The position numbers and the translations under genes are program-made. The notes under the pieces are model-generated. The model worked only from the letters and a program-made list of their open reading frames with translations, was not told the origin of the DNA and did no database searches. From the IMG/VR virus record IMGVR_UViG_3300030202_000991: a stretch of 64,000 bases of DNA; one strand, given 5' to 3'. Shown here piece after piece: positions 2,454 through 61,282 of this stretch. This DNA is from an uncultured virus (IMG/VR IMGVR_UViG_3300030202_000991) (lineage: Duplodnaviria; Heunggongvirae; Uroviricota; Caudoviricetes). Within the stretch, counting starts at the first letter, position 1; the number at the start of each line of letters is the position of its first letter.

Positions 2454-3605
2454 TTATGCTCTACCTCCCATAGCAGTAGCACTACCGGTTGTACCTAGAT
2501 GTATAGCCGTCCAATCCGTTTGAGAGCCTATTTGTACAGGGGAAGAATACTTTACGGGGTTTTTAGTGCTTTGCCCCGCTTGACCTATCCAATTAGCTCC
2601 CCATGCCCATATAGTTCCATCGGTTTTTTTCGCAAGAGTTATACCGTTTCCGGGCCTAATGTCTTCCCAAGTGGTTAACGCACCCACTTGCTGAAAGGTG
2701 GTCTGAGTGGTGGTCGTCACATTGCGCCCAAGTTCTCCATTATTGTTTCTACCTGCCATATACAATTTACCAGCGTCAATGGCTCCTGAAGTTTGATAAC
2801 CTGCGCCACAAGCCGTCCAACCCGTACTTGAACCTACTTGGTTAGGACTATTCGTATTACCTGTACCACCATTCCCCAACTGCCCATAATTATTATTTCC
2901 CCAAGTCCATAAAGTGCCATCTGTTTTAACATGTATTTGGTGATTTTCACCGCCGCTAGCTCCTTTTAGCCAGTTGGTTAAAGAGCCAATTTGTACAGGG
3001 GATGATTTATTTGGCGTGTCTGTGCTATTACCTAAACCTCCTTGAGAAGCTATCCCCCACGTCCACAGAGTGCCATCTGTTTTGACTGCTTGAACCGCCG
3101 CGTAACCCCCTCCAGTAGTCCAAGCCCACGTTGTAAGCGACCCAATTTGCACAGGAGATGAATATTTTGAAATGTCGCCTGAGCCAGTGTTTACTCCAAC
3201 CGCTCCGTAATCATTCTCTCCCCAACCCCAAAGCGATCCATCTTTTTTAATGACGTGACAAGCAACGCCTTCTTGGTTTAGAACTCCACCCGTCCAATTA
3301 GTTAACGAACCTATTTGAATAGGCGAAGAAGCGTTAAGCCCTGTATTCCAACAACCAAATCTTCCGTCTCCGCAACTATACAGATGACCACTTGAACGAG
3401 TTCCAACAAAGTTATAAGCACCTGAAAATTGAAGCCAATCTGTTTCGGAACCTAATTGAATAGGAGAAGAGCTTTCACCCGCAGTATCGTTTAAATTTCT
3501 TGCTGATGATCCGTTATAGTTACCACCCCAAACATAAAGACTAGAAGGCGTAGCGCCTGAAGCTAACGCAAAGTTGCCCAGCATCATTAAAGTTATTCCA
3601 GACAT
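2454..3605 (-). CDS. RCC1/ATS1-like beta-propeller repeat protein (putative tail-associated receptor-binding protein)
   Basis: About 7 repeats of the type KTDGTLWTWGxNxxGQLG...SSPVQIGSLTNW; lies directly after tail-fibre-like gene. Confidence 0.85.
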   Translation of the reverse strand: MSGITLMMLGNFALASGATPSSLYVWGGNYNGSSARNLNDTAGESSSPIQLGSETDWLQFSGAYNFVGTRSSGHLYSCGDGRFGCWNTGLNASSPIQIGSLTNWTGGVLNQEGVACHVIKKDGSLWGWGENDYGAVGVNTGSGDISKYSSPVQIGSLTTWAWTTGGGYAAVQAVKTDGTLWTWGIASQGGLGNSTDTPNKSSPVQIGSLTNWLKGASGGENHQIHVKTDGTLWTWGNNNYGQLGNGGTGNTNSPNQVGSSTGWTACGAGYQTSGAIDAGKLYMAGRNNNGELGRNVTTTTQTTFQQVGALTTWEDIRPGNGITLAKKTDGTIWAWGANWIGQAGQSTKNPVKYSSPVQIGSQTDWTAIHLGTTGSATAMGGRA

Positions 3606-3617
3606 AAGTAGTTACCC

Positions 3618-4610
3618 TTATATGTTTCCAGTAATGACACACACGGTTGCGCTAATAAATAAAATAGTGGCAACCCCTCTCGTGGCTAAAGTTGCCGTAG
3701 CAATATCAGCGTCCTCACCTGCTTTGTAAGCAGTAGTGATTGTACAAGTTATGGTCACATCACCTGTGGTGTTATTAAAAATAGAAATTACATCGCCTTC
3801 TGCAAAAGTAGAGTTAGGTATTACAATCGCACCGCTAGAGCCGCATTGGACATATTTGCCAACATCCCCTACAGCAAGCGTGTAACTGCCTGTTTTTGTT
3901 CCCACCGCAGGAGCGTTTCTAAAACCAACTTCATCCGTACCGTCTGCGGTACAACTTTGAAGGTTGCCTGAAGCAGGGGTTCCTAAAGCTGGCGTAACAA
4001 GAGTTGGACTTGTAGCAAACACTAAAGCCCCTGTGCCAGTTTCATCAGTAACCGCAGAGCGCAAATTAGCACTAGAAGGTGTGCCTATCCACGTTGCTAC
4101 TCCAGTGCCGAAAGATGTAATTCCAGTGCCGCCATTTGCTACAGGCAAAGTACCAGTAATTTGACTTGCTAGATTTAGATTAAAATTAGCTAAAGCGTCT
4201 ACAACAGCAGCTCCAGCCCCTGCTCCATCTAAATAAACTATTTTAGTTTCCCCAGTGCCAATATTAATAGTAGCACCTGAACCTTGTTTAATGGTTATGG
4301 TCTGACTACCTGTAGTGGCATTTTCTATCCACATTAAACGAGATAATGTATTAGGAGCTATTGTAAGTTCTCTAGTAGCACTTAAAGTAGCACCTGAAGT
4401 AACTTTAAAATAAAGTGCTCTTGCTGGGTCTGCCGCACCGTCAGCAACAGTTGTAGTAGCGTTACCGTCTGAAGCAAAAGCTGCTTGTGTGTTGTACCCA
4501 AGCGAGTCAGCAATAAGCTCTAAATTAGTATTTGTACTAGTACCCCAAGTGCCGTCTTCATCACCCGTGGTAATTTCTTTAAGCCTTAAATTGTTTACGT
4601 AAGTAGCCAT
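3618..4610 (-). CDS. Tail fibre / virion structural protein
   Basis: Gly/Thr/Ala-rich; GTLPVANGGTG and TDETGTGALVFATSPTLVTPALGTP segments typical of phage fibre proteins; position in tail module. Confidence 0.7.
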   Translation of the reverse strand: MATYVNNLRLKEITTGDEDGTWGTSTNTNLELIADSLGYNTQAAFASDGNATTTVADGAADPARALYFKVTSGATLSATRELTIAPNTLSRLMWIENATTGSQTITIKQGSGATINIGTGETKIVYLDGAGAGAAVVDALANFNLNLASQITGTLPVANGGTGITSFGTGVATWIGTPSSANLRSAVTDETGTGALVFATSPTLVTPALGTPASGNLQSCTADGTDEVGFRNAPAVGTKTGSYTLAVGDVGKYVQCGSSGAIVIPNSTFAEGDVISIFNNTTGDVTITCTITTAYKAGEDADIATATLATRGVATILFISATVCVITGNI

Positions 4611-14930: not shown

Positions 14931-15362
14931 TTACGCACGAGTCAGTTTACTCGGATCGTCAATTACGGCTTCAATTGAGTCATCATTCATAATGCGATAC
15001 TCAACATCACCCACTCTAAGTCTAGTACCTGTGCTTGCTCGGAATACTACGTAATCTCCTTCCTTACACCACGGGCCACTAGGGAAACGTTCTTTATCCT
15101 TATAGGCTTCATCTCCCATATCACAGACAACGCCTGTCATCTGGAGAATGTTTTCTTCCTTGATTGTTTGATTTGCTTTCGCAATACCACTATCAAACGT
15201 ATCTTCTGCGTTAGATAAGGCCACCATAACCCTATAACCAACAGGCTTGGGAACATGTTTATCTAAGACTACTTCTTTTTGTCTTTCAAATTCCTGTTCC
15301 GCTATTTTCTTCTTTCGCTTGGCTTCAATAGCCGTTGTTGCAATCGCTTCAGGCATCGTCAT
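14931..15362 (-). CDS. groES: GroES-like co-chaperonin
   Basis: PVGYRVMV, SGI, GVVCDMGDEAY, KEGDYVVF, EYRIMNDDSIEAVI match the Cpn10 pattern. Confidence 0.8.
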   Translation of the reverse strand: MTMPEAIATTAIEAKRKKKIAEQEFERQKEVVLDKHVPKPVGYRVMVALSNAEDTFDSGIAKANQTIKEENILQMTGVVCDMGDEAYKDKERFPSGPWCKEGDYVVFRASTGTRLRVGDVEYRIMNDDSIEAVIDDPSKLTRA

Positions 15363-19569: not shown

Positions 19570-20058
19570 CTACTTGGCTACCTCATAGATGCCGTCTTTG
19601 TTCTCTTTTAGCTCTAATAGGCTTTCTTTTAGCTTTTGCCGTAGCTCTTGAGAGTTTTGGTGGGTTACTTTTATTTCTTTTTTGTCAGCAAACAGTCCAA
19701 CTTCGCTAATTCTGCCGATATTAACTAAAGCAGAGATACGTTCAGAGGCTTTATCGCTCTGTGTCTCCAGAATAAGGCTGTTTACTACGAAATCACGGAG
19801 CTTGGCAGGGGTGGCATTCAACGAATTACCATGTTCTTTCAGGATATTCACTGCTTGGAGCTGCGATACGGTAACTTTCCCGGCGCTATCTGGTTTGGTA
19901 GTGGCTTTTTCAACAGGAGCTGCGGGGGTGACAAGCTGTAAATCATGCGCTTCCAGCAATTCTTTGTTGCGGCAAGCGGCCTCTGCGGTTTCGCGCACTT
20001 CTGCATACTTGAGATTTACTGGCAACTCAATAGGAGTAGCCGTTTCGGAAGAATCCAT
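19570..20058 (-). CDS. Putative terminase small subunit
   Basis: 162 aa helical ORF immediately upstream of terL; first gene of the late arm. Confidence 0.55.
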   Translation of the reverse strand: MDSSETATPIELPVNLKYAEVRETAEAACRNKELLEAHDLQLVTPAAPVEKATTKPDSAGKVTVSQLQAVNILKEHGNSLNATPAKLRDFVVNSLILETQSDKASERISALVNIGRISEVGLFADKKEIKVTHQNSQELRQKLKESLLELKENKDGIYEVAK

Positions 20059-20094
20059 AGCGTTACCATCGCAGACCTAGTGTCGTAAGGTGTA

Positions 20095-20122
20095 AGTATA
20101 GGAACTTATTGAGAAAAGTAAA
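20095..20122 (-). promoter_or_regulatory. Possible sigma70-type promoter for the packaging/structural arm
   Basis: TTTACT-N16-TATACT on - strand about 37 bp upstream of the terS-like start. Confidence 0.35.
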
Positions 20123-20424
20123 GGGAGGTTAAAGGTTCCATAAGGGGGTGGTTTCTAGTTTGGCGCATTATTTTTGACTTAGGTGGGTTTTTATTTAAAG
20201 GGGGTGGGGTCTTTTGCGGGTAATTTGTGATTTGTTGGTGCGTACTATTATTACATATACGTGTATGGAACCGTTGTCGCATAGTGGGGGGCGGGGGGTG
20301 GACACCAGTTCTGGCAGAGTCCTACAGAAAAAAGGGGACGCCCTCGCGCATACGCGCACATAAAAGGAATAAACTAGAAATAACTACTTATATGTGCATA
20401 AAACTCAATTAAACTATAAATAAC

Positions 20425-20453
20425 TTGACATTACTACCAATCTATGAGACTAT
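20425..20453 (+). promoter_or_regulatory. Sigma70-type early promoter
   Basis: TTGACA-N17-GACTAT with extended TG and A-rich UP region; same TGAGACTATA as 21860 promoter. Confidence 0.6.
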
Positions 20454-20508
20454 ACAACCATCGACAGGGAGATGGAGTCGATAACTAAAATAACCAAATA
20501 GGTGATTT

Positions 20509-20769
20509 ATGACCGATAGACCCAAAACGTTTGAAGAAAAAATAGTCGCTAGAGGCTTTCCAGATACACGAGTCGCTAGTCTTAAATGGGCAGTTCAACA
20601 GCTACACAGTGCAATTTGCCACTTAGATTGTGATTACCAGAAGTTGTTTGAAAAGGAGTATGGAGGTGAATTTGGTATCTACTCGCTTCTATATGATTAC
20701 TCCGAGAGTGAATGGGGATTAAAACAGATATTCCCGCCTAGTATAGGCGACACCCATATAGACCAATAA
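20509..20769 (+). CDS. Early hypothetical protein
   Basis: 86 aa; AGGTG RBS; first gene after promoter. Confidence 0.65.
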   Translation: MTDRPKTFEEKIVARGFPDTRVASLKWAVQQLHSAICHLDCDYQKLFEKEYGGEFGIYSLLYDYSESEWGLKQIFPPSIGDTHIDQ

Positions 20770-20778
20770 CCATAACCC

Positions 20779-20794
20779 GGCACATGGATGTGCC
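20779..20794 (+). promoter_or_regulatory. CsrA/RsmA-type GGA hairpin 1
   Basis: GGCACATGGATGTGCC; matches ACANGGANGU. Confidence 0.55.
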
Positions 20795-20813
20795 ACCCAC
20801 TAAGGAATCAATT

Positions 20814-21065
20814 ATGAAATGCAATAAATGTGACAATAAAGATTGGTCTTGGATTTACAGTAATTTGAAAAATACAAACATCGTTTCATTAGAAAAAACT
20901 TGTAACGTTTGTTTGACTAACGATGGATGGTTTGAAGAGATTGATGAGTATGGTCGCTCTACCGGTATACGAGGTAATCAATTTTTAGCCATCAAGAGAG
21001 ACTATCGTGGTTCTCTCTCAGAAGAAAATTTAATTACACCCGTTATGGTATTTAAAATTTATTAA
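20814..21065 (+). CDS. Early Zn-ribbon-like hypothetical protein
   Basis: ATG at 20814 after TAAGGA; CNKC...CNVC. Confidence 0.65.
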   Translation: MKCNKCDNKDWSWIYSNLKNTNIVSLEKTCNVCLTNDGWFEEIDEYGRSTGIRGNQFLAIKRDYRGSLSEENLITPVMVFKIY

Positions 21066-21070
21066 TCAAC

Positions 21071-21113
21071 CCGGCACATGGACGTGCCACTTACTTAGGA
21101 GATAGATATGAAA
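21071..21113 (+). repeat. 43-bp direct repeat copy 1 (GGA hairpin + RBS + ATG)
   Basis: ccggcacatggacgtgccacttacttaggagatagatatgaaa identical at 21351-21393. Confidence 0.95.
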
Positions 21114-21338
21114 TTAGTTTACTGGATAGCAGTTTGCACAGACGATTCAAGCGCCTACAACATTCGGGCTAAAACTCGGAAAGAGTGTAAACGATTACTG
21201 GAGAAACATCGGTCTGGAGGAGGAGGAGCGAAATTCTCAGACAATATCAAGCGGGTCGAAGTTCACTACGCCAGCGGATTCGATTTGATTGATCAGGCTC
21301 TAGGTGAAGGTGGTATTGAGCCGGGAGATTGGGATTAA
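21108..21338 (+). CDS. Early hypothetical protein
   Basis: 76 aa; AGGAG RBS; YNIRAKTRKEC. Confidence 0.75.
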   Translation: MKLVYWIAVCTDDSSAYNIRAKTRKECKRLLEKHRSGGGGAKFSDNIKRVEVHYASGFDLIDQALGEGGIEPGDWD

Positions 21339-21350
21339 CATTTTTTACAA

Positions 21351-21393
21351 CCGGCACATGGACGTGCCACTTACTTAGGAGATAGATATGAAA
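21351..21393 (+). repeat. 43-bp direct repeat copy 2 (GGA hairpin + RBS + ATG)
   Basis: Identical to 21071-21113. Confidence 0.95.
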
Positions 21394-21639
21394 GGTATAA
21401 ACTACGATAGAAAAAAGCTAGAAGAACAGTATAAAGAGTACATGGTAGACGCAGAAAGAGTAGCCGAAAAAATGTTGAACATAGACTTCAAAGAGCGCAC
21501 AGAGAGGTTACTCAAAAGAGAAAAGGATAAGTTCAGGAGAGAACTTGAGAAAGTAAGGGAAGCGCATAACCGAGGGAGATCATCAATACTTCAGGATGAA
21601 ATGATCGCAAGGAGAAGGATGAGATTGAAAGAAGTATAG
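21388..21639 (+). CDS. Early hypothetical protein (charged, helical)
   Basis: 83 aa; AGGAG RBS. Confidence 0.7.
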   Translation: MKGINYDRKKLEEQYKEYMVDAERVAEKMLNIDFKERTERLLKREKDKFRRELEKVREAHNRGRSSILQDEMIARRRMRLKEV

Positions 21640-21649
21640 TAAATCTACA

Positions 21650-21667
21650 GAGCACAAGGATGTGCTC
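21650..21667 (+). promoter_or_regulatory. CsrA/RsmA-type GGA hairpin 4
   Basis: GAGCACAAGGATGTGCTC; contains ACAAGGAUGU. Confidence 0.55.
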
Positions 21668-21859
21668 GCCCCCCAAAAGAAACCAGTTCCCGAACTGCGT
21701 GCCGCCTAAGTCGCGCCCCCAAGATTTTTGTTCAAATTTTTTTCAGCGTGACGCAAAAAATAGACGGCGTTTCTCATTATCTAAATTAGATAGTCAAACC
21801 AGAATAGACTCAAAAATACTCAAAAAAAGTTCATTAAAATCAATCAGATACAAAATCAC

Positions 21860-21888
21860 TTGACTCTGTAACTTGTTTGTGAGACTAT
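21860..21888 (+). promoter_or_regulatory. Sigma70-type early promoter
   Basis: TTGACT-N17-GACTAT with extended TG. Confidence 0.55.
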
Positions 21889-21946
21889 AGAAACCGTTCC
21901 CAGTGACGGGAGCGATACACTTAACTTTAATCATTAGGAGACAGCT

Positions 21947-22543
21947 ATGTCTGTTATTTTAACTTTAGGAAAAAAAGCAGTACGTGCAGGTAAGAAATGG
22001 GCTGGTAGTGCATATCAGAGTTTATGTGACAAAAAAGATTTTGTCGCGGCGCTATTTGCGGATGGTATTACGCCCGATCACATCAAAAAGGGATCGCGCA
22101 CTAACGAGAATCCCCTTTATGATCACGTTTCTCAGGTATTAACGGATGGATTGCCAGAAAAGAAACGCGCACTCTTGATGCGAGATCACAAGGATTTGAC
22201 TACGCAGCGCCAGAAAGATGAACGTAACGCATTATTATCGGTACGCTCTAAATTGATGGGTAATCTTCGCGGATCGCTTGAGCGAAAATGGAAGCGGGAA
22301 GTAAAGGACGGGAATATCAAGAAGCCCAATTGGATGGAATCGGATACTCCTGAGAATCCTGATACTCCTGATACTCCTGATACTCCTGATACTCCTGATA
22401 CGGTAACGCCTAGTCAGCACATGTCTACAATAGTGGCAGCATTTATGGATAACGTAAAAACAGAAACATCTTACTTTAACGCCACCGCAGTAATAAAAAC
22501 CGGAATGGATTTCCAGAAAGAGTTAGACAAGAAACCAAAGTAG
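21947..22543 (+). CDS. Hypothetical protein with (PDT)n linker
   Basis: 198 aa; AGGAG RBS; 9-bp gatactcct tandem repeat; own promoter and terminator. Confidence 0.8.
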   Translation: MSVILTLGKKAVRAGKKWAGSAYQSLCDKKDFVAALFADGITPDHIKKGSRTNENPLYDHVSQVLTDGLPEKKRALLMRDHKDLTTQRQKDERNALLSVRSKLMGNLRGSLERKWKREVKDGNIKKPNWMESDTPENPDTPDTPDTPDTPDTVTPSQHMSTIVAAFMDNVKTETSYFNATAVIKTGMDFQKELDKKPK

Positions 22544-22559
22544 TTAGCAAGACAGTGAG

Positions 22560-22587
22560 AGGGAGGCCGAAAGGTCTCCCTTTTTTT
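22560..22587 (+). terminator. Rho-independent terminator
   Basis: GGGAGGCC-GAAA-GGTCTCCC followed by T7. Confidence 0.85.
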
Positions 22588-22671
22588 GTGCCCAAAAAGA
22601 TGCCAGTTCCCGCTCGGCGTGCTGCCTTGCCCCCCAAAGCTGTGCTGCCCCCCACAAAATTCGACCTGACG

Positions 22672-23315
22672 CATGTGACTATCTAAATTAGATAATGGGG
22701 TCTGACGCCAGTTCTCCCTCGGCTTGCCGCAAAAACCCCTAATTTTGCGTAGAAATGCATTTGTAACTTTTGTAACTTTTGTAACCTTTTTGAAACCTTG
22801 AAAAAGTTACAGCAGTCTTTTGCAGTTTGACGTGGGTTTCTTGTAGAAAGGCAAATTAATCTTGTTTGTTTTAATATATAAATTACTTAACTAAACTGTA
22901 ATGTAACTTTTGTAACTTTTTTATTTATAAATAATAGGTCTGAACTTTTTTTAACACTGTTATTTCAAACTTGTTGTCAAGAGAGTGTCTGCGCCATAAT
23001 CTCCAAACCTATTGTTTAAAAAGGTACAAAAGTTACAAAAGTTACACAGTTGTTTTATAAGGATTTTTTCACCAAAAAAAAGTTACTTTTGTAACTTTTG
23101 TAACCTTTTTATATCTCCACAACTTCTTGCCATCTTAAGACTTCACTTTCATGCTGTTTCATGCAGTTGTTTATAGCTTAATTCCACTTAAAACTTTTTT
23201 ATGTGTAACTCTTTGTTTTACTTGACATTTATTATGTTCTTTGCTATCATATATAATAATTGGAGTTGCATTGCAGCTTGTTGTATTTTGATTATCTAAT
23301 TTAGATAGTCACATG
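22672..23315. other. Putative replication origin / control region
   Basis: ORF-free, AT-rich; many TGTAACTTT units in both orientations; flanked by perfect 25-bp inverted repeat 22672-22696 / 23291-23315. Confidence 0.55.
23222..23250 (+). promoter_or_regulatory. Strong sigma70-type promoter
   Basis: TTGACA-N17-TATCAT with extended TG. Confidence 0.7.
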
Positions 23316-23327
23316 GGTTGTGTGTCG

Positions 23328-23341
23328 GCACAGGGACGTGC
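23328..23341 (+). promoter_or_regulatory. CsrA/RsmA-type GGA hairpin 5
   Basis: GCACAGGGACGTGC between two palindromic operator-like sites. Confidence 0.5.
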
Positions 23342-23395
23342 GCTTTTACTAATCGATTATCTAATTTAGATAGTCACCAACTGAGGAAAGTATCA

Positions 23396-23596
23396 ATGGA
23401 TAACTTAAGTAATGTAGTTGACGTTGACCTTCTTGATGATGGCACGCTAGACACAGTAGTACGTATCACCACTACTTGCGGCGCGGCATTGATTGAGAGA
23501 TTCGACAGCGAGACAAGGTTCGGCTTTGACGCTGACCCTGACACCTCTACTGACCTGTTCCTAGACGACATCAAGGGGCAAGCATGGGACGTGTGA
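23396..23596 (+). CDS. Small acidic hypothetical protein
   Basis: ATG at 23396 after GAGGA; DDGTLDTVV motif. Confidence 0.65.
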   Translation: MDNLSNVVDVDLLDDGTLDTVVRITTTCGAALIERFDSETRFGFDADPDTSTDLFLDDIKGQAWDV

Positions 23597-23814
23597 AGCA
23601 AGAGCTAGTAACTGAAGAAGGATGCTCAGTGTGCGGTGTGTTGTATGACCGCCGCCGAGCAGAACTGGGGTACACAACTTGTGTAACTTGTGGAGAGAAA
23701 GAAGCACGACAGCGCAAGCACACAGTAGTACCCCTTCATAAATCGAACTACATGGTTCCAGCTAACGCCGCTGAACTGCGTGGTATCAACAACAAGGGAG
23801 GATTCTTCCGGTGA
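23584..23814 (+). CDS. DksA/TraR-type C4 zinc-finger protein
   Basis: CSVCG-x5-RRAELGYTTCVTC matches the C4 finger spacing. Confidence 0.6.
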   Translation: MGRVKQELVTEEGCSVCGVLYDRRRAELGYTTCVTCGEKEARQRKHTVVPLHKSNYMVPANAAELRGINNKGGFFR

Positions 23815-23946
23815 AAAACAAAACTAAAACCGACTACCCTCGTGCCTTAAACCCACAAGTGGAAAAAATGCGGGGTTCAACAGGCAGTCATGTAGTCCTG
23901 TATTTTGTACACAGATTGGGTGATTGCCTAGAGAGGAGGGTTCTCA

Positions 23947-24402
23947 ATGATTGTTCTACTAATTAGATACGACACTTATTCTGATCGTGACCATGAGGGT
24001 CAAGAAATATTTACCAGAGAGTGGGCGGTATTGGATAAGGGATTCTGGGACACTGATGATGATGAACTTGTAGTAGATAGGTACGACCAAGACAAGTTTG
24101 ACTTTGACGGCCCACGAGATGCAGCAAAAGAATTTGTGAAACGTCACTACCCTGACATGCGTGTACTTCATGTCGGACGCTTGCCTGACTCTCGACATTC
24201 CATAGCGACACTAGAACCAGACGATCCTGATCCGGTTCGGGATTCTATTGGAATGAGTGATGCTGCCCTTAAGAAACTCAGCAAAGAACAGCTCATGTAT
24301 CTAGTAAAGCATGAGCATGATCATGGGAGAGTGGCGCGTAAACTAGCGCAGGATTGGGAAGATTTGTATTGCAGCACAATGCAAAAGATGCAGCATGAAT
24401 AG
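23947..24402 (+). CDS. Hypothetical protein
   Basis: 151 aa; GAGGAGG RBS. Confidence 0.7.
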   Translation: MIVLLIRYDTYSDRDHEGQEIFTREWAVLDKGFWDTDDDELVVDRYDQDKFDFDGPRDAAKEFVKRHYPDMRVLHVGRLPDSRHSIATLEPDDPDPVRDSIGMSDAALKKLSKEQLMYLVKHEHDHGRVARKLAQDWEDLYCSTMQKMQHE

Positions 24403-42823: not shown

Positions 42824-42849
42824 TGCCCTCCATGTGAGGGCATTTTTTT
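42824..42849 (+). terminator. Rho-independent terminator at convergence of the two arms
   Basis: TGCCCTC-CATGT-GAGGGCA followed by T-run. Confidence 0.75.
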
Positions 42850-45800
42850 ATCCTACATAAAAGTCGTCTTCGCCTAGTTCTTGTAGTCGCCTACGCACCA
42901 CAGCGTTCAAACGTTGTCGGTTCACCGTTATACCCCCTAGTCTGCGTGCTATCTGAGAGGTTATGCGGTGTTGTCTTAACGACCTGCTCTTCGTAGACCC
43001 TGTAATCCTTACTTCAGGGTTTCTTGCGTTGAACTCCATGATATCCCTATCCGCGTCAAGCACTCCTGTAAAGTCCCCTTCACGGAAAGCCATGTAACGT
43101 TGACGTAACAACTTAGTTCTTTTCTCACTAATGTTCCTGTCTATACGTTTATCTCGTGCGTTTATTTCTAGCTGTTTCGTGTAGTCAGCAGGGGCAAACC
43201 CAAGGAATTGCCCAAGAATAGAACGTGCTGATAGGTCTTCTGTAATTGGGTCACCTCGTAGAGTACGTGCACCCTCAGTAGCATAGCGGATGCTTTTTAG
43301 TGGCCCTGAGAAACCTGCGGGTAACATTCCTTCCAACCCACGTCTGTATTCACCTTCGTCCATTAAACCTTTACTACGTGAAATACGTTGCCCTATACCG
43401 TAAAGTGGGCCACCTGCCATTTCTAAAACGTAACTAAGACCATCATCTATCTCATTATTAGGCAATGACCTAAATATTAAATTAGTCATACCAATACGAG
43501 GCGCAAAATCTACGTCAAAAATTTCATTGAGTATGCCTGAATAGGCAGTTTCACCAATGTTAGCGGCTACAATGCTGTCAAAATCATCATCTTGGTCGTC
43601 TAAGAAGAATAAGTTAGCTACACCAGCAAACACACCATAAAGAGGTAACCCTTGTGCTCCTGCCAATAAACCAGACATACCGAACAATCCAGCAATTTGT
43701 TTTTTAGCGTCTTTTTGTTCTTGTTCTGAAAAGTTGCCCATTCGTATAGCTTGTTTAGCCATCTTCATTTGCAGATAAGCCATAGATATACCGAACCGCT
43801 TATACATGAGAAGTATGCTACTAATATCACCTTGAGCTATTTGAGGAGCTGTTTCTATTAGCGCACCACTGTTAGTATGTTCAACGTCAAGCATTACCTC
43901 GTTTACAAAATTACTACCTAATGCGTGTACTTTTTCCAAATAGGCTTCGTATTTACGAATCTGCTCTTTAGTAGCACCTTTTTTTGGAGGTTTTCTTACA
44001 GTTTCTAGTTTGCTATCTGCTTTAGCTTTATCCAACGCTAGTTTGTACGCAGCCATCGCTGTAATTTGTCTGTTAAATCTTTCCCCTTGATGGAACATAA
44101 ATCCAGAGATTCCATTTACAGCCGTTATAGTTCGGTCAAACTTCCCACCCGTTGGATTATCTATATCTAGCATGTCTCCAACAGTAGACGCATTAGCTGC
44201 TCCTCTGTCAACAAGTTCTCTTATTAGAGGCTTAAGTTCTGCATATTCTTCCGGTAAGTTTTCAAGATCAAGGTTGGCGAGGCTAGGCCCATCAATCTCA
44301 TATAAGTCATCTCTGGTTAACCCTCGCTTCTTTAACTCTGCATCTAAATTTGCGTCTTCAAGCCCTTCAAGGTTTTCAAGCCCTGCTACTCTGCGTTTAA
44401 CGCCAGTACCAGAGTATAATTTCATAGCTTCCATCATAGCTGCCATCGTGTTACGCATCCCATAGCGTCCTGCTAAATAAGGCAACACTACAATGGGTAA
44501 GATGAAAGAGTTAACTACGGCAGAAGAAACGTTAAAACCTAGTGTCATCAAGAACCCAAGTGATTTAAGTCGTCTACTGTTGGTGCTTATCTTGGGGTTT
44601 TTAACAAAGTCTGCGTATTCTGTTCCTTTCTGCACTAATTGTTCAGCGTAATCCAGTTCGCCCTGACTACCAGTAACCTGTGCTCTTAGATTGTTTAAGT
44701 TAGTTTTAACTTGGTCAAGAGGAGCGTCAAACTTTAAATTGTCTACTTGCCCCATAAAAGCTGGCATACGTTGACGGAACACATCGATAGCGTCTCTTTC
44801 TGCCCCACGGACATCTTTTCTAGTCCTAAAAGCGCGATGCAAAGAACGCTCTGGCATTGCGTCAATAAGAGCGTCTTGTACAATACTATCTAAGGCATCA
44901 CCCGCGCTCATTACTTGTTTGTACTTAGCTTCTGCGGCTGCAAGTTCTTCAGGTGTGGGTTCTCTGTTTTCTTCTTTAGCTGCGGCCAATTCTTTTTGTC
45001 TGGCTCTTTTTGCGGCTTGTTCTTTCTTCGCTCTTACATCCGCAAGTAGTCCTTGTGCCCATCGAATGTCTACAGAAGAACGTTCTGATGCGTCAACTTG
45101 AGGGCGGTCTAACATTGTACCTTCCAAAGCAGTTCTAAATTCTGCTTCCTGTATCTGTTCAGGAGTGGCATTAGGATTAGTTTTTAATAGTGCTTCCCGT
45201 CCTCTTTTTCTAGCTTCAACAATAGTACCTGCTTCACTTGTAAGTAGTTCTTCTCTCAGTCTTGTATCTTGTAAGATAGCTTGTTCGTACCGTTGCCTGT
45301 CTCGTTGAGAATCAAAAGCAGTTTTATATGGTTCAGGTCGTCCTGTAATTGGATCAAGACCCATGTGGGTGTACCAAAAATCACCTTTTCTAAACAACGG
45401 AAAATAAGGTTCTATAAGCTCTTTGTTTAAAAGTTCCAATAGAATTTTATCTTTGTACGATTGTTTTGCTTGTGCCGCTTCTTCAGAATCGGTTGGAACT
45501 CCATCAATACGTGCTACCAAGGCTTTACGTAAATCTTCGTAAGCGTCCGAATAGGCATCTCGTAGCTCTACGTACACCTCTCTTGCTTTTGGATCAAGCC
45601 TATTCCAGTACTCCATTATATTGTTGTAGTCTTTTTCTGCTTCTTCGCTAGGGTTTATCTTACCGAACTTTGACCGTTCTTCTTTTGATAACTTGTCATT
45701 CTCAGCTTGTTCCTTCTCAAAAGCCGCATCTCTTTTTTCCGCAGTTGGAAAGTGGTAAGTGTTCCTGTTACCGTCTTTATCTACCACAGTGTAACGATAC

Positions 45801-48800
45801 CCTGTGTAGTACTCTTTAGCGTTCTTTCTGGAAGGGTCTATTCTAAGTAAAGTACTTTCTTCTACTATAAAGTTAAAAAGTTTGCGTTGATTTGGGCCTA
45901 ACTTATTAAGTATCTTTTCGAACCGCCTTGCCTTGTCTTTAGTTAACAGCAGATACTTTTGCCTAGAACCATTCTTTTGCTGAATAATTTTAAACAGCTC
46001 ATCCAAACCTCTGCCTAAATCTCTTATACCTTCGTTGTTACTTTGTTTTGCAAAGTCAGCTATGGAATTGAGAGGCAATAACTTAAAAAAGAACCCACGA
46101 GCGTCATTAGTTGCTTGCGGCGCATACGCATTAAATATAGAAGCCGCATCTTGTGGAACCTCACCGCCATATCCGTCAAATAGGTCATCCAAAAACGCAT
46201 CTTCTTTACCTGCCGTTACCGCTAGGTTCATAGCAGGAGCGTTACGGTATTGAGGAGCAGGAGAGATCATGTCCCCTACTATCTTATCTACCTCACTCAT
46301 TGCTGAGTTCAATTTCTTTGTAGGAAGACGGCGTAATACGCGAATTACGTTAGCCACTATATTCTTAAATCGCTCCAATACCCCTAACTTATCTCCGTTG
46401 GTGTCCATAGAAGCTAGTTTGGCTTGGAACTCTGGGTTGGAAAAAGCCTCGGCAACAAATTCATCAAGGTTAGTAGTACCGTAAGCGTCTTCTAATCTGT
46501 CTTTAACGCTATCAAAGAGTCTCTGTAACTGTTTAGTAGTTGACCTGCTTTTGTTAGCAATTACGTGTGAAGTAACAGCGTGCAAGGATTCGTGCAACAG
46601 AGCGTGGTTAGTAGGGGGTATGCTTTCGTTCAGAATAATAGTATTAGTTCTAGGATCGAACATACCTGCCAACAAACGCCCTTTCCCATCCATCAAGTTT
46701 GGTTGGAATGTAACCTTAGTGCCACTTTCTGCAATGGCTTTGTTGATGGCTCTAGCAACTTTTCGTACATCTTTATCTTGATTATTACCAAGTAGTTCCA
46801 GAGCTTCTGCCAGTTTCCCTTCTCGTAGTAGCTGGGTAACTTCTGGGTCTAAAACAGCCGCTGCTCCCACTAGTTTCTTCATTGGGAGAGGCATACCCAA
46901 GTCACTTCGCATACTGTTCTGCATAGCCTCTAAATTTTTTCTGGTGCTTTCAGAAGCGTTTTGTTGAATCCACGCTATTTTAGCTCTCGCGTCTGCTTTT
47001 TGTTGGGCAGTTCCATCAATGGAATTATAAGCAAGAGCCGAGAGAAAACTCTCCATATCGTCTCCAGTTTCTATTTCCTCAAACTCTGCCCGGAATTTTT
47101 CTTCGTCTAATTCTTTGTCAACTTGTTGTTGAGCTACGCTTTCTTCTGTTGCGTTACGAGTATCGCCAGTTGCCTGTGGTTCTGACTCGACAGTAGTGGC
47201 TTCTTCTTTAGCTGCTTGTGCCTCTTCGTCTGTAGCGTTCTTAACGTTTTCTCTTCGATTAGGTCGTAGGATTCCTCCACGAGGGCCAAGCATTTCTATT
47301 TGCTCTTGTCTTTGCTCTTCTAGTTTTTCAAGTATGCGTTGTTGTTCTGCAATTTCTTGATCTAAACGATTGCTTTCCGCTTGTGCTTGAGCAGCAGGGT
47401 CAGCAGGTTCTACTTGTGGTATCTCTAATTGCGCTTGTCCCTCTACTGGACGGCCAGTACGATCTTGTTCTTGTTGCACTTCTCGTAAAGCTGCACCTAA
47501 CGCAGGTTCTACGGAAGAATCTTGTCCTGCTTCCATTGTTGCCGCCAACGCTTGTAAGTCTTCTGCACGTTCTTGTTCGCGTTGTGTAAAAGCTGCTTCC
47601 TGTTGTTCCTGAATAACATCCTGTTCAATACCTTCTCCTATGGTCATTTGTCCCGGCGCTTCTTTACGGGCAATCTGATCCATTTCAGAAGCCATCGCAC
47701 CTGCTTCTTGTTCTGCGCTCTCTTTTGCGGCTAACGTTTCTGCTCTCGTTAGTATGGGCATGTTAAGTAAACCCAATACTTTATTTCGACTATCTCTGTA
47801 ACGAGATTTTACTGTAGGGTTATTTGCATAATTAACGATGGTTTCTACAGCAGTACGAGCATCCTGTGGGTCAGCCAAATCGAGTGCAGGAAGTTCTTTC
47901 TTTAACTTAGTGCTTGTAATACCTAAACCTTCTAAGTCTTCTTTAGTTATAGCTGTTTTCTCTTCAGCCATAATCTCCGTAAATAACTCGCGTTGTGCAC
48001 CCTCACTCCTTAATTTTTCTTCATTGGCAATCGCTTCTTCAAATGCGGCTGCGAACCTTTCAGGGTACGCCCTACCTTGTGGGTCAACTAATATAGCCGA
48101 ACCATCTCCAGTAGGTGGTGGGGGTAAACGATATGTTCCTTGAGGTAAAGCAGGGGGAGGAACGGGAGGAACGGGAGGAAGAACTTCTCCTTCCAATATG
48201 GGTTCTGGGACAGGCACGAGATCAGTCCCAGTTGTAGCGGGTTCTGTAGCTACTTCTGCCTCACGGCCACTTAATTCTTCCCGTAACCTTCGCGCTCGTG
48301 ATCGACTACCTAAAGCACCAATCGGGCCAAGTGTACCGCCGACAGTAACAGCAAGGTAAGCTGCTTCGCCGTATTCAGAAAGAGCTTCAGGAGATAATAC
48401 GTCTAGGCCAGCTTGTGCTCTTTCCAAAACTTGTTGGGCTACTTCTGTAGGCAGCTCTGCACCCGCACCTCTAGCAATGCCTCGCCCTATAGTTTTAGCT
48501 GTACCTAAGTCTGCCTCCCGCACTAGTTTTTCCGCAGCTTCTCGTAGCTGAGTGGAGCTTAACTTTGTAACATCTCCTTGTACCAACTTGTTTACAAGAC
48601 CTTTACCTAAGATAAAGTATTGTCCCGCTAACTCTGGTATTGATTGTAAGGCGGCTGTACCAACAGCTTTTCCTAGCTCTACATCTACCGGACGGCCTTC
48701 GTCTATATCGGCTTGAGCCTGACGTTCAAGATTGTACCCAGTAAATTGAGGTATAAGAGCAGCAAGACCGCCAACACCTGCGCCTATTCCAGCACCTATA

Positions 48801-49288
48801 GCTGTGCCTATACCGGGAAAAAAAGAGCCTATTCCAGCTCCAGCTACAGCGCCCATTTTAGCAGCAGCAACTGTGCTAAGTATTTGTGCTCCTTGCCCTG
48901 CAACGGCTTGTGGAATCTGGCCTAGCGCAGTCCCTACAGTGGGTAGTATTCCTTCAGCATCTAGTACTTTCTGTAAAGTTGGGCCTTCACCGTAGCGTTG
49001 CGCTATGTCTTCGCTACGCTCTAACCCTGCAAGTGCGGCTGCTTCGTCATCCCCAAAAGTTGCTTCGCCAGCAGTGCGTATAGCCGAAAAAAGAGATTCT
49101 CCACCCCGCATGAGTTGCCCACCAAAAGTGCTTTCTGGAGGGGGAGGGGGTAGCGTAACGTCAATGCCTTGGCGTAATCTGAAGTAAGCATCCCTTGCTA
49201 ATGCTGGGCCTTGTTCGTCAGGAGTACCTTTAGGTACATAAAAGTCAAACTTTTCCCCTGAAGGTGCTGTTCCTGTAGCGATAGGCAT
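42848..49288 (-). CDS. Large internal virion / polyvalent protein with zincin-like metallopeptidase motif
   Basis: 2146 aa; GMFDP...HESLH...EFVAE; Gly/Ala-rich hydrophobic N-terminal segments; last gene of internal-protein cluster. Confidence 0.7.
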   Translation of the reverse strand: MPIATGTAPSGEKFDFYVPKGTPDEQGPALARDAYFRLRQGIDVTLPPPPPESTFGGQLMRGGESLFSAIRTAGEATFGDDEAAALAGLERSEDIAQRYGEGPTLQKVLDAEGILPTVGTALGQIPQAVAGQGAQILSTVAAAKMGAVAGAGIGSFFPGIGTAIGAGIGAGVGGLAALIPQFTGYNLERQAQADIDEGRPVDVELGKAVGTAALQSIPELAGQYFILGKGLVNKLVQGDVTKLSSTQLREAAEKLVREADLGTAKTIGRGIARGAGAELPTEVAQQVLERAQAGLDVLSPEALSEYGEAAYLAVTVGGTLGPIGALGSRSRARRLREELSGREAEVATEPATTGTDLVPVPEPILEGEVLPPVPPVPPPALPQGTYRLPPPPTGDGSAILVDPQGRAYPERFAAAFEEAIANEEKLRSEGAQRELFTEIMAEEKTAITKEDLEGLGITSTKLKKELPALDLADPQDARTAVETIVNYANNPTVKSRYRDSRNKVLGLLNMPILTRAETLAAKESAEQEAGAMASEMDQIARKEAPGQMTIGEGIEQDVIQEQQEAAFTQREQERAEDLQALAATMEAGQDSSVEPALGAALREVQQEQDRTGRPVEGQAQLEIPQVEPADPAAQAQAESNRLDQEIAEQQRILEKLEEQRQEQIEMLGPRGGILRPNRRENVKNATDEEAQAAKEEATTVESEPQATGDTRNATEESVAQQQVDKELDEEKFRAEFEEIETGDDMESFLSALAYNSIDGTAQQKADARAKIAWIQQNASESTRKNLEAMQNSMRSDLGMPLPMKKLVGAAAVLDPEVTQLLREGKLAEALELLGNNQDKDVRKVARAINKAIAESGTKVTFQPNLMDGKGRLLAGMFDPRTNTIILNESIPPTNHALLHESLHAVTSHVIANKSRSTTKQLQRLFDSVKDRLEDAYGTTNLDEFVAEAFSNPEFQAKLASMDTNGDKLGVLERFKNIVANVIRVLRRLPTKKLNSAMSEVDKIVGDMISPAPQYRNAPAMNLAVTAGKEDAFLDDLFDGYGGEVPQDAASIFNAYAPQATNDARGFFFKLLPLNSIADFAKQSNNEGIRDLGRGLDELFKIIQQKNGSRQKYLLLTKDKARRFEKILNKLGPNQRKLFNFIVEESTLLRIDPSRKNAKEYYTGYRYTVVDKDGNRNTYHFPTAEKRDAAFEKEQAENDKLSKEERSKFGKINPSEEAEKDYNNIMEYWNRLDPKAREVYVELRDAYSDAYEDLRKALVARIDGVPTDSEEAAQAKQSYKDKILLELLNKELIEPYFPLFRKGDFWYTHMGLDPITGRPEPYKTAFDSQRDRQRYEQAILQDTRLREELLTSEAGTIVEARKRGREALLKTNPNATPEQIQEAEFRTALEGTMLDRPQVDASERSSVDIRWAQGLLADVRAKKEQAAKRARQKELAAAKEENREPTPEELAAAEAKYKQVMSAGDALDSIVQDALIDAMPERSLHRAFRTRKDVRGAERDAIDVFRQRMPAFMGQVDNLKFDAPLDQVKTNLNNLRAQVTGSQGELDYAEQLVQKGTEYADFVKNPKISTNSRRLKSLGFLMTLGFNVSSAVVNSFILPIVVLPYLAGRYGMRNTMAAMMEAMKLYSGTGVKRRVAGLENLEGLEDANLDAELKKRGLTRDDLYEIDGPSLANLDLENLPEEYAELKPLIRELVDRGAANASTVGDMLDIDNPTGGKFDRTITAVNGISGFMFHQGERFNRQITAMAAYKLALDKAKADSKLETVRKPPKKGATKEQIRKYEAYLEKVHALGSNFVNEVMLDVEHTNSGALIETAPQIAQGDISSILLMYKRFGISMAYLQMKMAKQAIRMGNFSEQEQKDAKKQIAGLFGMSGLLAGAQGLPLYGVFAGVANLFFLDDQDDDFDSIVAANIGETAYSGILNEIFDVDFAPRIGMTNLIFRSLPNNEIDDGLSYVLEMAGGPLYGIGQRISRSKGLMDEGEYRRGLEGMLPAGFSGPLKSIRYATEGARTLRGDPITEDLSARSILGQFLGFAPADYTKQLEINARDKRIDRNISEKRTKLLRQRYMAFREGDFTGVLDADRDIMEFNARNPEVRITGSTKSRSLRQHRITSQIARRLGGITVNRQRLNAVVRRRLQELGEDDFYVG

Positions 49289-58510: not shown

Positions 58511-58720
58511 TTACTTTCCCGTAGAGTCTTCCTCCACGATCTCGTCAATCGTATCGCATACGTCTGGTATGGCTATGCCAGTAGTCACCTCAGTAGTGAC
58601 GCGCCCTACAGCCCGTATGCCTTTGTATATCCCAGAGCAGTACAGTTCTTTGTTGGCTATCATCTCCTCAGAGACTGTACAACCAGCCATTAGTACACAC
58701 AACGCAACAATTCTAACCAT
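58511..58720 (-). CDS. Small lipoprotein (spanin-like)
   Basis: ATG at 58720 after GAGG; signal peptide with LMAGC lipobox. Confidence 0.55.
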   Translation of the reverse strand: MVRIVALCVLMAGCTVSEEMIANKELYCSGIYKGIRAVGRVTTEVTTGIAIPDVCDTIDEIVEEDSTGK

Positions 58721-59462
58721 CTTTAACCTCATTAATAAGTGTTTTTAATTCTTTTACTTCTTCTTCACTAAGTTTAAGTTCTTCGTTTTGATTATCTAAA
58801 AACCCCTCTAACCGTTCTTTATAGCCTCCCATAAAGTGGTCAGTAATCCGGTCTTTTAACCCACCTCTGTCTTTATCCCGTAAATCTTTTGTAGGATCAA
58901 TAAAGTCTTGCCCACTATTGGCAAAGTACAGCATAGTCTGTGACTTAGAAGGGCCATAGCAAATGCGGGGTATACGCGCCACCATGTCAGAACCAGCCAC
59001 GCAGGAAATTTGTTTATCTAACGTCATAGGGCGTTTAAATCCCTTGAAGAACGTATTCGGCTTACCAAAGGTAATAAGATTGAGGTTAGGGTGTTTCTTC
59101 CACAACTTAGCCGCTGTTAGCTCTGCTAACGCACCACCAAGACTATGCCCACAGACTAGTGTACGTTTCTTCATATCTAGGTGTTTTTTAATCTTACGCC
59201 ACACTGAAGCATGGGCAGCTACAAACCCGCCGTGGCACAACCTACCTGCGTAAGGTACGGGTACTACCATTGCATCGGTTAGCCAATCTTGGCCTTGTTG
59301 TGTACCCCTGAATGCAATCACATCTATCGTCTTACGTTTAGCTATATATACAGTAGTAGAGGTTAGTCGGCTTTCTATCTTGATGGACTTTTTGTTCTCA
59401 TCATCGTACGCCTTCATACTCCACGAGCAAGCCATATTAAGTAGTACAGGGTCTAGTTTCAT
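58713..59462 (-). CDS. Class 3 lipase (alpha/beta hydrolase)
   Basis: IAFRGT, HGGF, GHSLGGALA nucleophile elbow, TFGKP, DMVARIP, DH. Confidence 0.9.
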   Translation of the reverse strand: MKLDPVLLNMACSWSMKAYDDENKKSIKIESRLTSTTVYIAKRKTIDVIAFRGTQQGQDWLTDAMVVPVPYAGRLCHGGFVAAHASVWRKIKKHLDMKKRTLVCGHSLGGALAELTAAKLWKKHPNLNLITFGKPNTFFKGFKRPMTLDKQISCVAGSDMVARIPRICYGPSKSQTMLYFANSGQDFIDPTKDLRDKDRGGLKDRITDHFMGGYKERLEGFLDNQNEELKLSEEEVKELKTLINEVKDG

Positions 59463-60861: not shown

Positions 60862-61282
60862 TAGCTTTTAAATTTTTTCCTATATGCAAAAGTAGTTCAT
60901 GTTCTACTTTAGCTAAAGTATCTATATTAGTAACACGCATATCATACTGCGAAGGACGTTCAAACATTTTGTTAGTATCTGTGTATTCAGAAATTTGCAC
61001 CGTGTCCATCCAAACCACCAAATCAGCGTTTAGTTTTTTACGCCATGCGTCTATAGGGCAAATGAAATCTAAAAAAACTAACCCTTTTTTATAATTAGCC
61101 GCTTCTTTCATCCGGTTAAACTGTCTAAACCTTCCCTCCATAGAAAAGTCCCAATCGTGCAAAGCCGCCCTAACTTCATCGGCGTTAATGTGACAACCTC
61201 CATGCTTTGCTACAAGTGACTTAGCCAACGTTGTTTTTCCGCTGTTGGGTAAACCAGTAAGTAACACCACACACTTTTTCAT
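60851..61282 (-). CDS. cysC: Adenylyl-sulfate (APS) kinase-like P-loop kinase
   Basis: LTGLPNSGKTTLA, NADEVR, DFSMEGR, FICP, FERP; shorter than cellular CysC. Confidence 0.65.
   Translation of the reverse strand: MKKCVVLLTGLPNSGKTTLAKSLVAKHGGCHINADEVRAALHDWDFSMEGRFRQFNRMKEAANYKKGLVFLDFICPIDAWRKKLNADLVVWMDTVQISEYTDTNKMFERPSQYDMRVTNIDTLAKVEHELLLHIGKNLKANDS

Follow-up and report, generated by a model that had tools for sequence, protein, structure and literature searches.

Candidate CsrA/RsmA-binding hairpins at early cistron junctions of an uncultured phage and their recurrence in unrelated phages

CsrA/RsmA is a major bacterial post-transcriptional regulator, but little is known of how it takes part in phage infection. 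The present analysis concerns a stretch of DNA from an uncultured virus (IMG/VR record IMGVR_UViG_3300030202_000991; 64,000 nucleotides, referred to throughout as the window), in which five short hairpins (hp1–hp5) with the consensus of a CsrA/RsmA site lie in early intergenic regions. On balance, we lean towards the view that these hairpins bind a host protein of the CsrA/RsmA type, that they gate the next cistron by bridging to its Shine-Dalgarno sequence (SD), and that they may also titrate the protein. We infer both the identity of the binding protein as CsrA and the direction of regulation from the sequence. CsrA sites themselves are well known; what would be new is their systematic placement between the cistrons of phages lacking a csrA gene of their own. 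A full-text literature search returned no report of optimal CsrA hairpins placed systematically at cistron junctions of phages without csrA.

Sequence, position and fold of the five hairpins

Systematic evolution of ligands by exponential enrichment (SELEX) gave the consensus RUACARGGAUGU for CsrA, in which ACA and GGA are 100% conserved and GGA is preferably placed in a hairpin loop (PMC4347634; Dubey 2005). The Rsm motif is described as CANGGANG, with A/U-CANGGANG-U/A as the optimum for RsmE (PMC6849547; Schubert 2007). All five copies in the window contain ACA-N-GGA-Y-GU, as does the SELEX consensus, and can be read as A-CANGGAYG-U; all five also fit the RsmE optimum. The motif GCACANGGAYGTGC occurs at 20780, 21074, 21354, 21652 and 23328 of the whole 64-kb window, in each case on the plus strand, and is absent from the minus strand, compared with a mean of 0.00 occurrences in 100 dinucleotide-preserving shuffles. 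The five CsrA-consensus hairpins that an earlier reading of the sequence alone had placed in plus-strand intergenic regions are thus all present, and its proposed count of the motif by strand gave five against none. When up to two mismatches were allowed, nine matches were obtained against 1.61 expected; the four additional matches are hp1 read antisense and three places elsewhere in the window.

All five hairpins lie between open reading frames (ORFs) of the plus-strand block and on the transcribed strand (Table 1). They are the only plus-strand hexaloop hairpins of the type xxGGAx with at least four Watson-Crick pairs in the 64 kb, and none is found among the late genes. The minus strand holds five hexaloop xxGGAx hairpins of at least four pairs, which have other stems and in none of which the loop begins with A. 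The hexaloops are AUGGAU or AUGGAC in hp1–hp3, AAGGAU in hp4 and AGGGAC in hp5. In the predicted RNA folds hp1 forms six base pairs with the loop UGGA, and hp2–hp4 adopt the stems and loops given in Table 1. The GGA is displayed in the loop of a short hairpin clearly in hp1–hp4 and with a competing fold in hp5, where the 5' arm pairs instead with an upstream UGUGUG run in the minimum free energy structure, and this hairpin is less certain. The SDs are unpaired in the predicted folds. Taken as whole 71-nt segments, the folds have energies of -9.5 to -13.8 kcal/mol and z-scores of -0.3 to -2.2.

Table 1. Positions of the hairpins, the neighboring small ORFs and the promoter-like sites in the window
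Feature	Position	Strand	Remarks
Putative sigma-70-like promoter of the first operon, TTGACA ... TGAGACTATAC	20425..20455	+	Assigned by eye
First small early-operon ORF, 86 aa, no family	20509..20769	+	
hp1, GGCACATGGATGTGCC	20779..20794	+	9 nt after stop of ORF 20509-20769; loop GGA 20786, SD GGA 20804 (18 nt apart), ATG 20814
ORF after hp1, 83 aa, Cys-rich, no family	20814..21065	+	Absent in L004 and in one run-X9 contig
hp2, GGCACATGGACGTGCC, 5 bp, hexaloop AUGGAC	21073..21088	+	7 nt after stop 21063-21065; loop GGA 21080, SD GGA 21098 (18 nt apart), ATG 21108
ORF after hp2, 76 aa, no family	21108..21338	+	Skipped in L004 and in contigs of 4/4 runs
hp3, same sequence as hp2	21353..21368	+	14 nt after stop 21336-21338; 18 nt between loop GGA and SD GGA; ATG 21388
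ORF after hp3, 83 aa, no family	21388..21639	+	Last ORF of first operon
hp4, GAGCACAAGGATGTGCTC, 7 bp, loop AGGA	21650..21667	+	10 nt after stop 21637-21639, end of first operon; no downstream SD
Promoter-like site, TTGACA-17-TATCAT with TG	23222..23250	+	11/12 matches; consensus scan
hp5, GCACAGGGACGTGC, 4-bp stem	23328..23341	+	5' untranslated region (UTR) below promoter-like site 23222-23250; between two copies of 18-bp palindrome ATCTAATTTAGATAGTCA; loop GGA 23334, SD GGA 23385 (51 nt), ATG 23396
ORF after hp5, 66 aa, no family	23396..23596	+	

A CsrA dimer is described as bridging two sites 10–63 nt apart, with the optimum printed as '>18 nt', and in the leader of Escherichia coli glgC, CsrA is tethered by a high-affinity hairpin that immediately precedes the SD and then covers the SD itself (PMC7652899; Baker 2002, Mercante 2009). 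A second GGA lies within this range downstream of hp1–hp3 and of hp5, but not of hp4. The early suggestion that three of the hairpins stand close upstream of an SD holds for hp1–hp3, with identical spacing in all three. In the proposed mechanism each of the five hairpins in the early messages of this lytic marine phage would display an optimal site for host CsrA/RsmA, consisting of a closing C-G pair and the hexaloop A-N-G-G-A-Y. At hp1–hp3 the two faces of a CsrA dimer would engage the hairpin and the GGA of the SD, respectively, as in glgC, and translation of the small early genes would be set by the level of free CsrA in the host. hp4, at the operon end, and hp5, in the 5' UTR, would add further high-affinity sites, and an abundant early transcript could soak up CsrA.

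Several familiar elements were considered for the hairpins and rejected. No run of T follows hp1–hp4, as an intrinsic terminator would require, and the matches of a terminator scanner fall on the antisense strand at hp1 and on another stem at hp5. A lambda-type nut/boxB site has a different loop and would not be expected in five copies, although an N-like gene was not sought. The stem is much too short for an RNase III site. An N4-type hairpin promoter was set aside on the grounds that no polymerase was found and that the carriers are diverse.

Conservation, recurrence and cassette exchange

Relatives of the window among viral contigs comprise G001/L003 (99.9% identical), L004 (about 90%) and L292, and the more distant L289, L290 and L291, which are related by the terminase (about 70% DNA identity) or by the gene after hp5. 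At equivalent places these relatives carry extra hairpins that were not selected by the search pattern and that differ in their stems: GACAC/GTGTC, GGCGC/GCGCC, GGGCC/GGCCC (three times) and, in another lineage, GCCAC/GTGGC (three times). The loop is A-N-GGA-Y in all of these unselected hairpins, and most are followed, after 6–10 nt, by GGAG and an ATG. The ORF after hp5 has a relative in contig G021 (L086/L291), where it is likewise preceded by a hairpin, GGCAC.AAGGAC.GTGCC.

An alignment (A1) was made of 26 intergenic hairpin units, 23 of them distinct, from the window and nine loci of related or motif-bearing contigs. Three rows with TGACC.AGGGAC.GGTCG, which lies in a stretch conserved across three contigs, and the G-U-rich L293:6557 had been dropped beforehand, having been judged by eye to lie within genes. 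In A1 98.3% of cells are paired, compared with 83.9% in shuffles, and none of 500 shuffles reaches the observed value. Changes on both sides are seen in four of the five pairs, and the covariation score is 0.378, against 0.089 when shuffled and at most 0.120 with slid partners. The stems seen overall are GGCAC, AGCAC, GACAC, GGCGC, GGGCC and GCCAC. These data indicate that the hairpin is under selection as a structure. The sequence-only reading had claimed covariation of the stem from the five copies in the window; the claim stands across relatives, where four of five pairs are compensated, whereas within the window it comes down to one compensated pair (G-C to A-U, in hp4).

The invariant columns of the alignment are C, A, G, G, A and G, and this CA.GGA.G is the published Rsm/CsrA core CANGGANG. 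All intercistronic units that were found without fixing the position 3' of GGA have C or T there, and the base before GGA, in the pattern-biased set, is A in 37, G in 24, T in 23 and C in 10 cases. Because the loop and the closing pair are invariant while the stem varies, a sequence-specific reader probably exists. The compensatory stem changes together with the asymmetric invariant loop argue that what is read is transcribed and single-stranded.

The hairpin is widespread among viral contigs. The exact 16-mer GGCACANGGACGTGCC has at least 119 occurrences there, which fall into 75 clusters by flank; among the matches listed, an SD and a start codon lie downstream in the sense orientation in 38 of the 75 clusters and in the antisense orientation in 6. 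Intercistronic cases of the 16-mer are mostly placed 8–20 nt after the upstream stop and about 20 nt before the ATG. As a control, viral contigs were scanned with the stem fixed, four loop bases free and an SD and ATG required. This gave 25 unique matches, 15 of them with an NGGA loop, although NGGA accounts for only 4 of 256 possible loops; each of the remaining 10 loops was found once. A complementary scan, in which the core CACANGGACGTG was fixed and the outer stem left free, again with SD and ATG, yielded 80 unique matches in viral contigs. An open frame spans 40 of these, many of them contributed by one conserved coding family, and the 40 probably represent chance or coding sequence. A further 32 are fully intercistronic, with an upstream stop, the hairpin, an SD and a downstream ORF, and come from 26 contexts without a shared 50-nt flank. 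At least two extra outer pairs are present in 24 of the 32 intercistronic matches compared with 8 of the 40 frame-spanned ones, and these pairs are varied (GG/CC, GC/GC, AG/CT, TC/GA, CA/TG, TTG/CAA and others). The distance from GGA to GGA in the core matches is 16–21 nt with peaks at 16 and 18, the pattern having admitted only 16–21. A search in related phages had been suggested from the sequence; the scans located the same hairpin-SD unit, in which about 9 nt separate the hairpin from GGAG and the ATG follows, in at least 26 unrelated viral contexts. The carriers include a 258-kb jumbo phage, a temperate E. coli phage and marine phages of 40–60 kb, and in the 2.5 kb around the hairpins, the span compared, no neighbor gene is shared across lineages.

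Bacterial genomes contain the pattern of hairpin, SD and ATG at only 15 places in 596 billion bases. The loop-free scan gave 22 viral loci with an NGGA loop, in a viral collection that is believed to be much smaller than the bacterial one, its size not being given. Nine of the 15 bacterial genomes have a CsrA match over the cut-off, a count that is only suggestive because it has no base rate and because several of the 15 are probably chance occurrences in G+C-rich DNA. In one metagenome-assembled genome (MAG) of the Opitutaceae (L127), two copies of GGGCACAGGGACGTGCC stand at about 1500–1585 on opposite strands, about 50 nt apart, before diverging genes. A similar unit is present in a second Opitutaceae MAG (L124), and both genomes encode CsrA.

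Matches of the 46-nt hairpin-SD unit in BLAST searches were discarded. The match in Aeromonas phage 13AC503A, among GenBank phages, proved on reading to be a different hairpin, CCCGGCACATGGCCGGG, and the Vibrio matches lie inside genes and on the other strand.

This 46-nt unit, made up of hairpin, spacer, SD and ATG, is identical at 21068..21113 and 21348..21393 of the plus strand. In L004 the hp1 unit is joined directly to the gene that follows hp3, without both ORFs that lie between them in the window. Contigs from four of four marine runs skip from 21070 to 21351, the two sides of this joint having 43 letters in common, and a contig of run X9 additionally skips from 20771 to 21065. The repeated hairpin-SD unit is a site of loss and gain of small early genes. 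Because it is repeated, the unit also supports homologous recombination, by which small gene cassettes come and go. A consensus scan found no promoter-like site in or at the 46-nt unit. The unit behaves as a portable module and recurs in many unrelated phages. More tentatively, a portable and recombinogenic hairpin-SD cassette with the optimal CsrA/Rsm site could have spread through unrelated phages, among them marine podovirus-like phages, jumbo phages of Pseudomonas and Dickeya, and prophages of E. coli. By means of it, phages without csrA would tie translation of selected genes to the Csr/Rsm state of the host and, where early operons are strongly transcribed, titrate CsrA and so reprogram the infected cell; Csr would then be a general sensor and target in phage infection.

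A relative of the gene at 21108–21338 was observed in runs X5, X6 and X11. It lies on short contigs whose context differs and whose depth is several times that of the phage backbone (174 versus 25 in X5). There a different palindrome follows the gene in place of the GGA hairpin. This cassette also circulates in other, more abundant genomes.

Possible readers of the hairpin

Three carriers have known hosts. In Pseudomonas phage PaBG (G011; host P. aeruginosa PAO1) all three hairpins are intercistronic and on the sense strand, 9–10 nt after the stops of gp218, gp216 and gp215 and before the next gene on the same strand. They are placed between adhesin-like genes, so that in other phages the hairpin is not specific to early genes. 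Dickeya phage JA11/JA33 (G016) has one exact copy. E. coli phage TL-2011b (L298), which belongs to a prophage group, carries two copies directly after the stops of its Bro-N and Ant genes, which share their 3' end; the copies, at 2880–2905 and 4030–4055, have the form GGCACAGGGATGTGCC or a 4-bp form of it, begin 8 nt after the stop and have no downstream SD. The Bro/Ant (Bro-N) module of the TL-2011b type is present in 423 of 5426 complete E. coli genomes. The phage phiV10, which had been considered as an E. coli carrier, lacks the hairpin at that place. The CsrA family was positive in E. coli among the control genomes of the profile search, and Dickeya encodes a CsrA-family protein. P. aeruginosa has RsmA and RsmN (PMC8545117).

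A CsrA homologue was found neither in the 81 ORFs of the window (E ≤ 0.01) nor in 26 small ORFs (E ≤ 10), the window perhaps being an incomplete genome. The CsrA family PF02599 was over the cut-off in none of 50 motif-bearing contigs, 16 of which are at least 90% complete. Given this lack of csrA in the window and the 50 contigs, and given how different the phages are, a common reader encoded by the phages is unlikely. The economical answer is a conserved host factor.

Several observations weigh against the CsrA interpretation. The prediction of an optimal site was borne out at the level of sequence in every respect, yet the restriction to early genes fails in PaBG. Most other contigs have only one to three copies, which is few for a sponge. 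Among the 15 bacterial genomes that carry the unit, six give no CsrA match over the cut-off, although MAGs may be incomplete; two of these CsrA-negative MAGs, from the Nitrosomonadales and the Verrucomicrobiota, carry a real-looking unit. The three carriers of known host come from a collection dominated by few host groups. Since parts of the motif were fixed in the searches, the sampled stems are biased, and the unbiased stems are those of neighbors of seed matches only. The named phages nearest by terminase show no enrichment of the core (0–3 matches at one mismatch, like the reversed control), and in Synechococcus phage MinM2 both core matches that were inspected lack complementary flanks. 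The phage group as a whole therefore does not share the hairpin, and no clue to the host comes from this comparison. Furthermore, one mechanism does not cover all copies, as hp4 and the TL-2011b copies have no downstream SD, and for such copies another mode of action has to be assumed. Other activities of CsrA include the protection of RNAs. The protein can, in addition, alter the access of Rho (PMC4052769).

A further difficulty is that the CsrA site is known to resemble an SD (PMC4347634), so that by sequence alone the loop could pair with 16S rRNA. The GGA loop would then be a displayed pseudo-SD, which pairs with the 3' end of 16S rRNA, holds a 30S subunit on standby or a ribosome that has just terminated, and raises re-initiation on the next cistron without any CsrA. 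The position of the hairpin between stop codon and next SD in the intercistronic cases would suit this explanation, as a ribosome would terminate 7–14 nt upstream, and so would the unpaired SDs of the predicted folds; the purine bias before GGA, in a pattern-biased set, fits either explanation. Against it, intercistronic units collected without fixing the position after GGA have C or T there, where GGAG would have G. The first position of the loop is an invariant A and the closing pair an invariant C-G; both are recognition features of CsrA/RsmE and not of pairing with the anti-SD. After hp4 and the TL-2011b copies there is no cistron to re-initiate. We consider a pseudo-SD unlikely. Rather improbable, too, is a site for some other protein with the same preference for A-N-GGA-Y, be it a phage RNA-binding regulator, a nuclease or another host factor. 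The invariant loop and closing pair on a variable stem do imply a sequence-specific reader, and such a protein could be concealed among the early genes of the window, most of which have no family. The diversity of the carriers, however, makes a common phage protein unlikely, and no gene is common to the lineages in the 2.5 kb compared around the hairpins. To our knowledge, no other factor reads exactly CANGGANG.

The remaining explanations dispense with a specific reader. A hairpin that acts independently of protein in intercistronic processing or stability, protecting the 3' end upstream or the 5' end downstream, would typically be placed at cistron boundaries and at the ends of operons or genes, as are hp4 and the copies after bro and ant in TL-2011b. 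Yet a 5-bp stem is weak, as the energies of the 71-nt folds indicate, and for a generic stabilizer both the invariant CA.GGA.G and the 15 NGGA loops among 25 would be superfluous, which makes this role very doubtful. The gain and loss of cassettes exactly at the repeated unit, in L004 and in four of four runs with 43 shared letters, might instead suggest an element that acts at the level of DNA only, such as a recombination hotspot, a cassette boundary, a hairpin promoter or an operator, with no role in RNA. The strict bias towards the sense strand (five of five in the window; at least 38 versus at least 6 clusters), the fixed distance to the SD, and the compensatory stem changes with an asymmetric invariant loop all speak against this possibility, and no phage RNA polymerase was found among the 81 ORFs of the window. 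Recombination is better seen as a by-product, because repetition alone suffices for it, and a purely DNA-level function is most improbable.

Binding of host CsrA/RsmA, if correct, would mean that phages read the nutritional or growth state of the host at the level of translation and could disturb that state by titration. The module would also explain the exchange of small early genes between phages. The hairpin might in addition mark the CsrA-bearing hosts of uncultured phages. As the same hairpin occurs in PaBG, in JA11 and in the E. coli Bro/Ant module, the question can be tested in standard systems.

Genomic setting and relation to known systems

Profile scans of the ORFs identify the window as phage DNA, with a large terminase, a portal, a capsid protein and SU10-type adaptors; it also encodes a family A DNA polymerase, a DUF927 primase-helicase, a lysozyme and a 2146-aa polyvalent protein. 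Genes are on the minus strand at 1–20.1 kb and 42.8–64 kb and on the plus strand at 20.1–42.7 kb, and the five hairpins stand at the start of the plus-strand block, amid small ORFs without any family. The sequence is present in marine and seawater metagenome runs, and no RNA run is among those listed for it. The named phages nearest by terminase (45–49% amino acid identity) are Pelagibacter phages HTVC027P and HTVC023P, 023Pt_psg01, DSL-LC04 and cyanophages including Synechococcus phage MinM2. PHROGs returned no family for any of nine genes scanned between 20509 and 24402, DNA searches of GenBank phages for near and distant matches, with the hairpin region and with 1–25000, gave none, and no tRNA gene was found in the window. 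In an attempt to deduce the host, the family 25 glycosyltransferase (GT25) of the window was looked up as a protein and returned viral clusters only.

Apart from the sites in Table 1, a promoter look-alike is present at 21861; the consensus scan called neither this nor the site at 20425. An 18-bp near-palindrome, ATCTAAWTTAGATAGTCA, occurs four times (21779–21796, 22681–22698, 23294–23311 and 23359–23376), and hp5, below the strong promoter-like site, is flanked by two of the copies. The near-palindrome resembles an operator to which a phage DNA-binding protein would bind. A 37-nt repeat, CCCCAAAAGAAACCAGTTCCCG..GCGTGC.GCC, is found at 21671–21707, after hp4, and at 22591–22627, after the terminator-like hairpin of ORF 21947–22543, with weaker look-alikes near 20305 and 22705; both copies precede the next promoter region. 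This ORF encodes a 198-aa early protein without a family, in which five tandem 9-nt repeats at 22343–22405 encode PDTPDTPDT... The array is probably variable in length, because contigs of run X11 pile up there with loose ends. The two early operons are separated by an AT-rich, gene-free stretch at 22754–23119 with at least eight copies of the 9-nt iteron GTAACTTTT, arranged in runs of two or three and in both orientations, with inverted copies around 23023–23045. Weak Rfam matches of the miRNA type correspond to the inverted repeat of this stretch, which possibly serves as an origin of replication or as an array to which a regulator binds.

Among the minus-strand genes, 42848–49288 encodes the polyvalent protein, which combines an LPD39 domain with a DarB-like antirestriction C-terminal part. 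E. coli phage PTXU04 is described as encoding a polyvalent protein of similar size close to a csrA homologue (PMC11879866). A glycan-modifying cluster at 627–2450 and 60151–63933, also on the minus strand, comprises two sulfotransferases, an APS-kinase-like P-loop protein, a DXD glycosyltransferase and the family 25 glycosyltransferase. An RCC1-repeat protein (2454–3605), a class 3 lipase (58713–59462) and, among the head genes, a Cpn10 (GroES-like) co-chaperonin gene (14931–15362, minus strand) are also present.

The arrangement in the window resembles the CsrA operator of glgC in that a GGA hairpin stands just upstream of an SD that holds a second GGA at a bridgeable distance. It differs in that the messages are polycistronic phage messages, in which a near-identical and portable 46-nt unit is repeated before successive cistrons; here the site is a candidate only. 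Analogous to the optimal RsmE/RsmA site, GGA is placed in a hexaloop closed by C-G, although the outer A-U pair of the RsmE optimum is lost in some relatives (the GGCGC and GGGCC stems) and the base after GGA is only C or T. Several GGA hairpins per transcript are also characteristic of the sponge RNAs CsrB, CsrC and RsmX/Y/Z/V (Rfam clan CL00106). In contrast to these, the RNA is coding and bears only four sites on the first operon and one on the next, and ORFs of 76–83 aa intervene between its hairpins in the first operon, where the sponge small RNAs have a dense non-coding array. An Rfam scan of 20000–24000 (E ≤ 10) gave nothing near a gathering score, and its only related signal was a weak match of hp3 to one RsmV hairpin (11.6 bits, E 4.4, gathering score 100). 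hp1–hp3 have loops of the AYGGAY type, as in TwoAYGGAY (RF01731), but they are single hairpins 280–300 nt apart, the loops of hp4 and hp5 differ, and Rfam gave no match to this family (E ≤ 10).

Promoter-early stem-loop (PeSL) cassettes of T4-type phages were reportedly described by Arbiol and colleagues in 2010. As in those cassettes, repeated regulatory stem-loops border small early genes and mediate their recombinational shuffling; unlike them, the present unit combines a hairpin with an SD, has no promoter, and its loop matches the site of a host RNA-binding protein.

Mobile DNA is known to meet the Csr system in several other ways. CsrA controls the ColE7 lysis gene cel (PMC2896534), and in pathogenic E. 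coli the prophage small RNA PasD2 and the 3' UTR of the plasmid gene mobA are described as bound by CsrA (bioRxiv 10.64898/2026.08.12.744399). About 1% of phages are reported to carry csrA genes (PMC7366521), and one such phage-borne gene has been put through a first fitness test (PMC11879866); in these accounts the role of phage csrA genes is only starting to be tested. Like cel, PasD2, mobA and the phage csrA genes, the hairpins would bring mobile DNA into contact with the Csr system. They differ from all of these in that many phages without csrA carry what appears to be an optimal site in cis at their cistron junctions.

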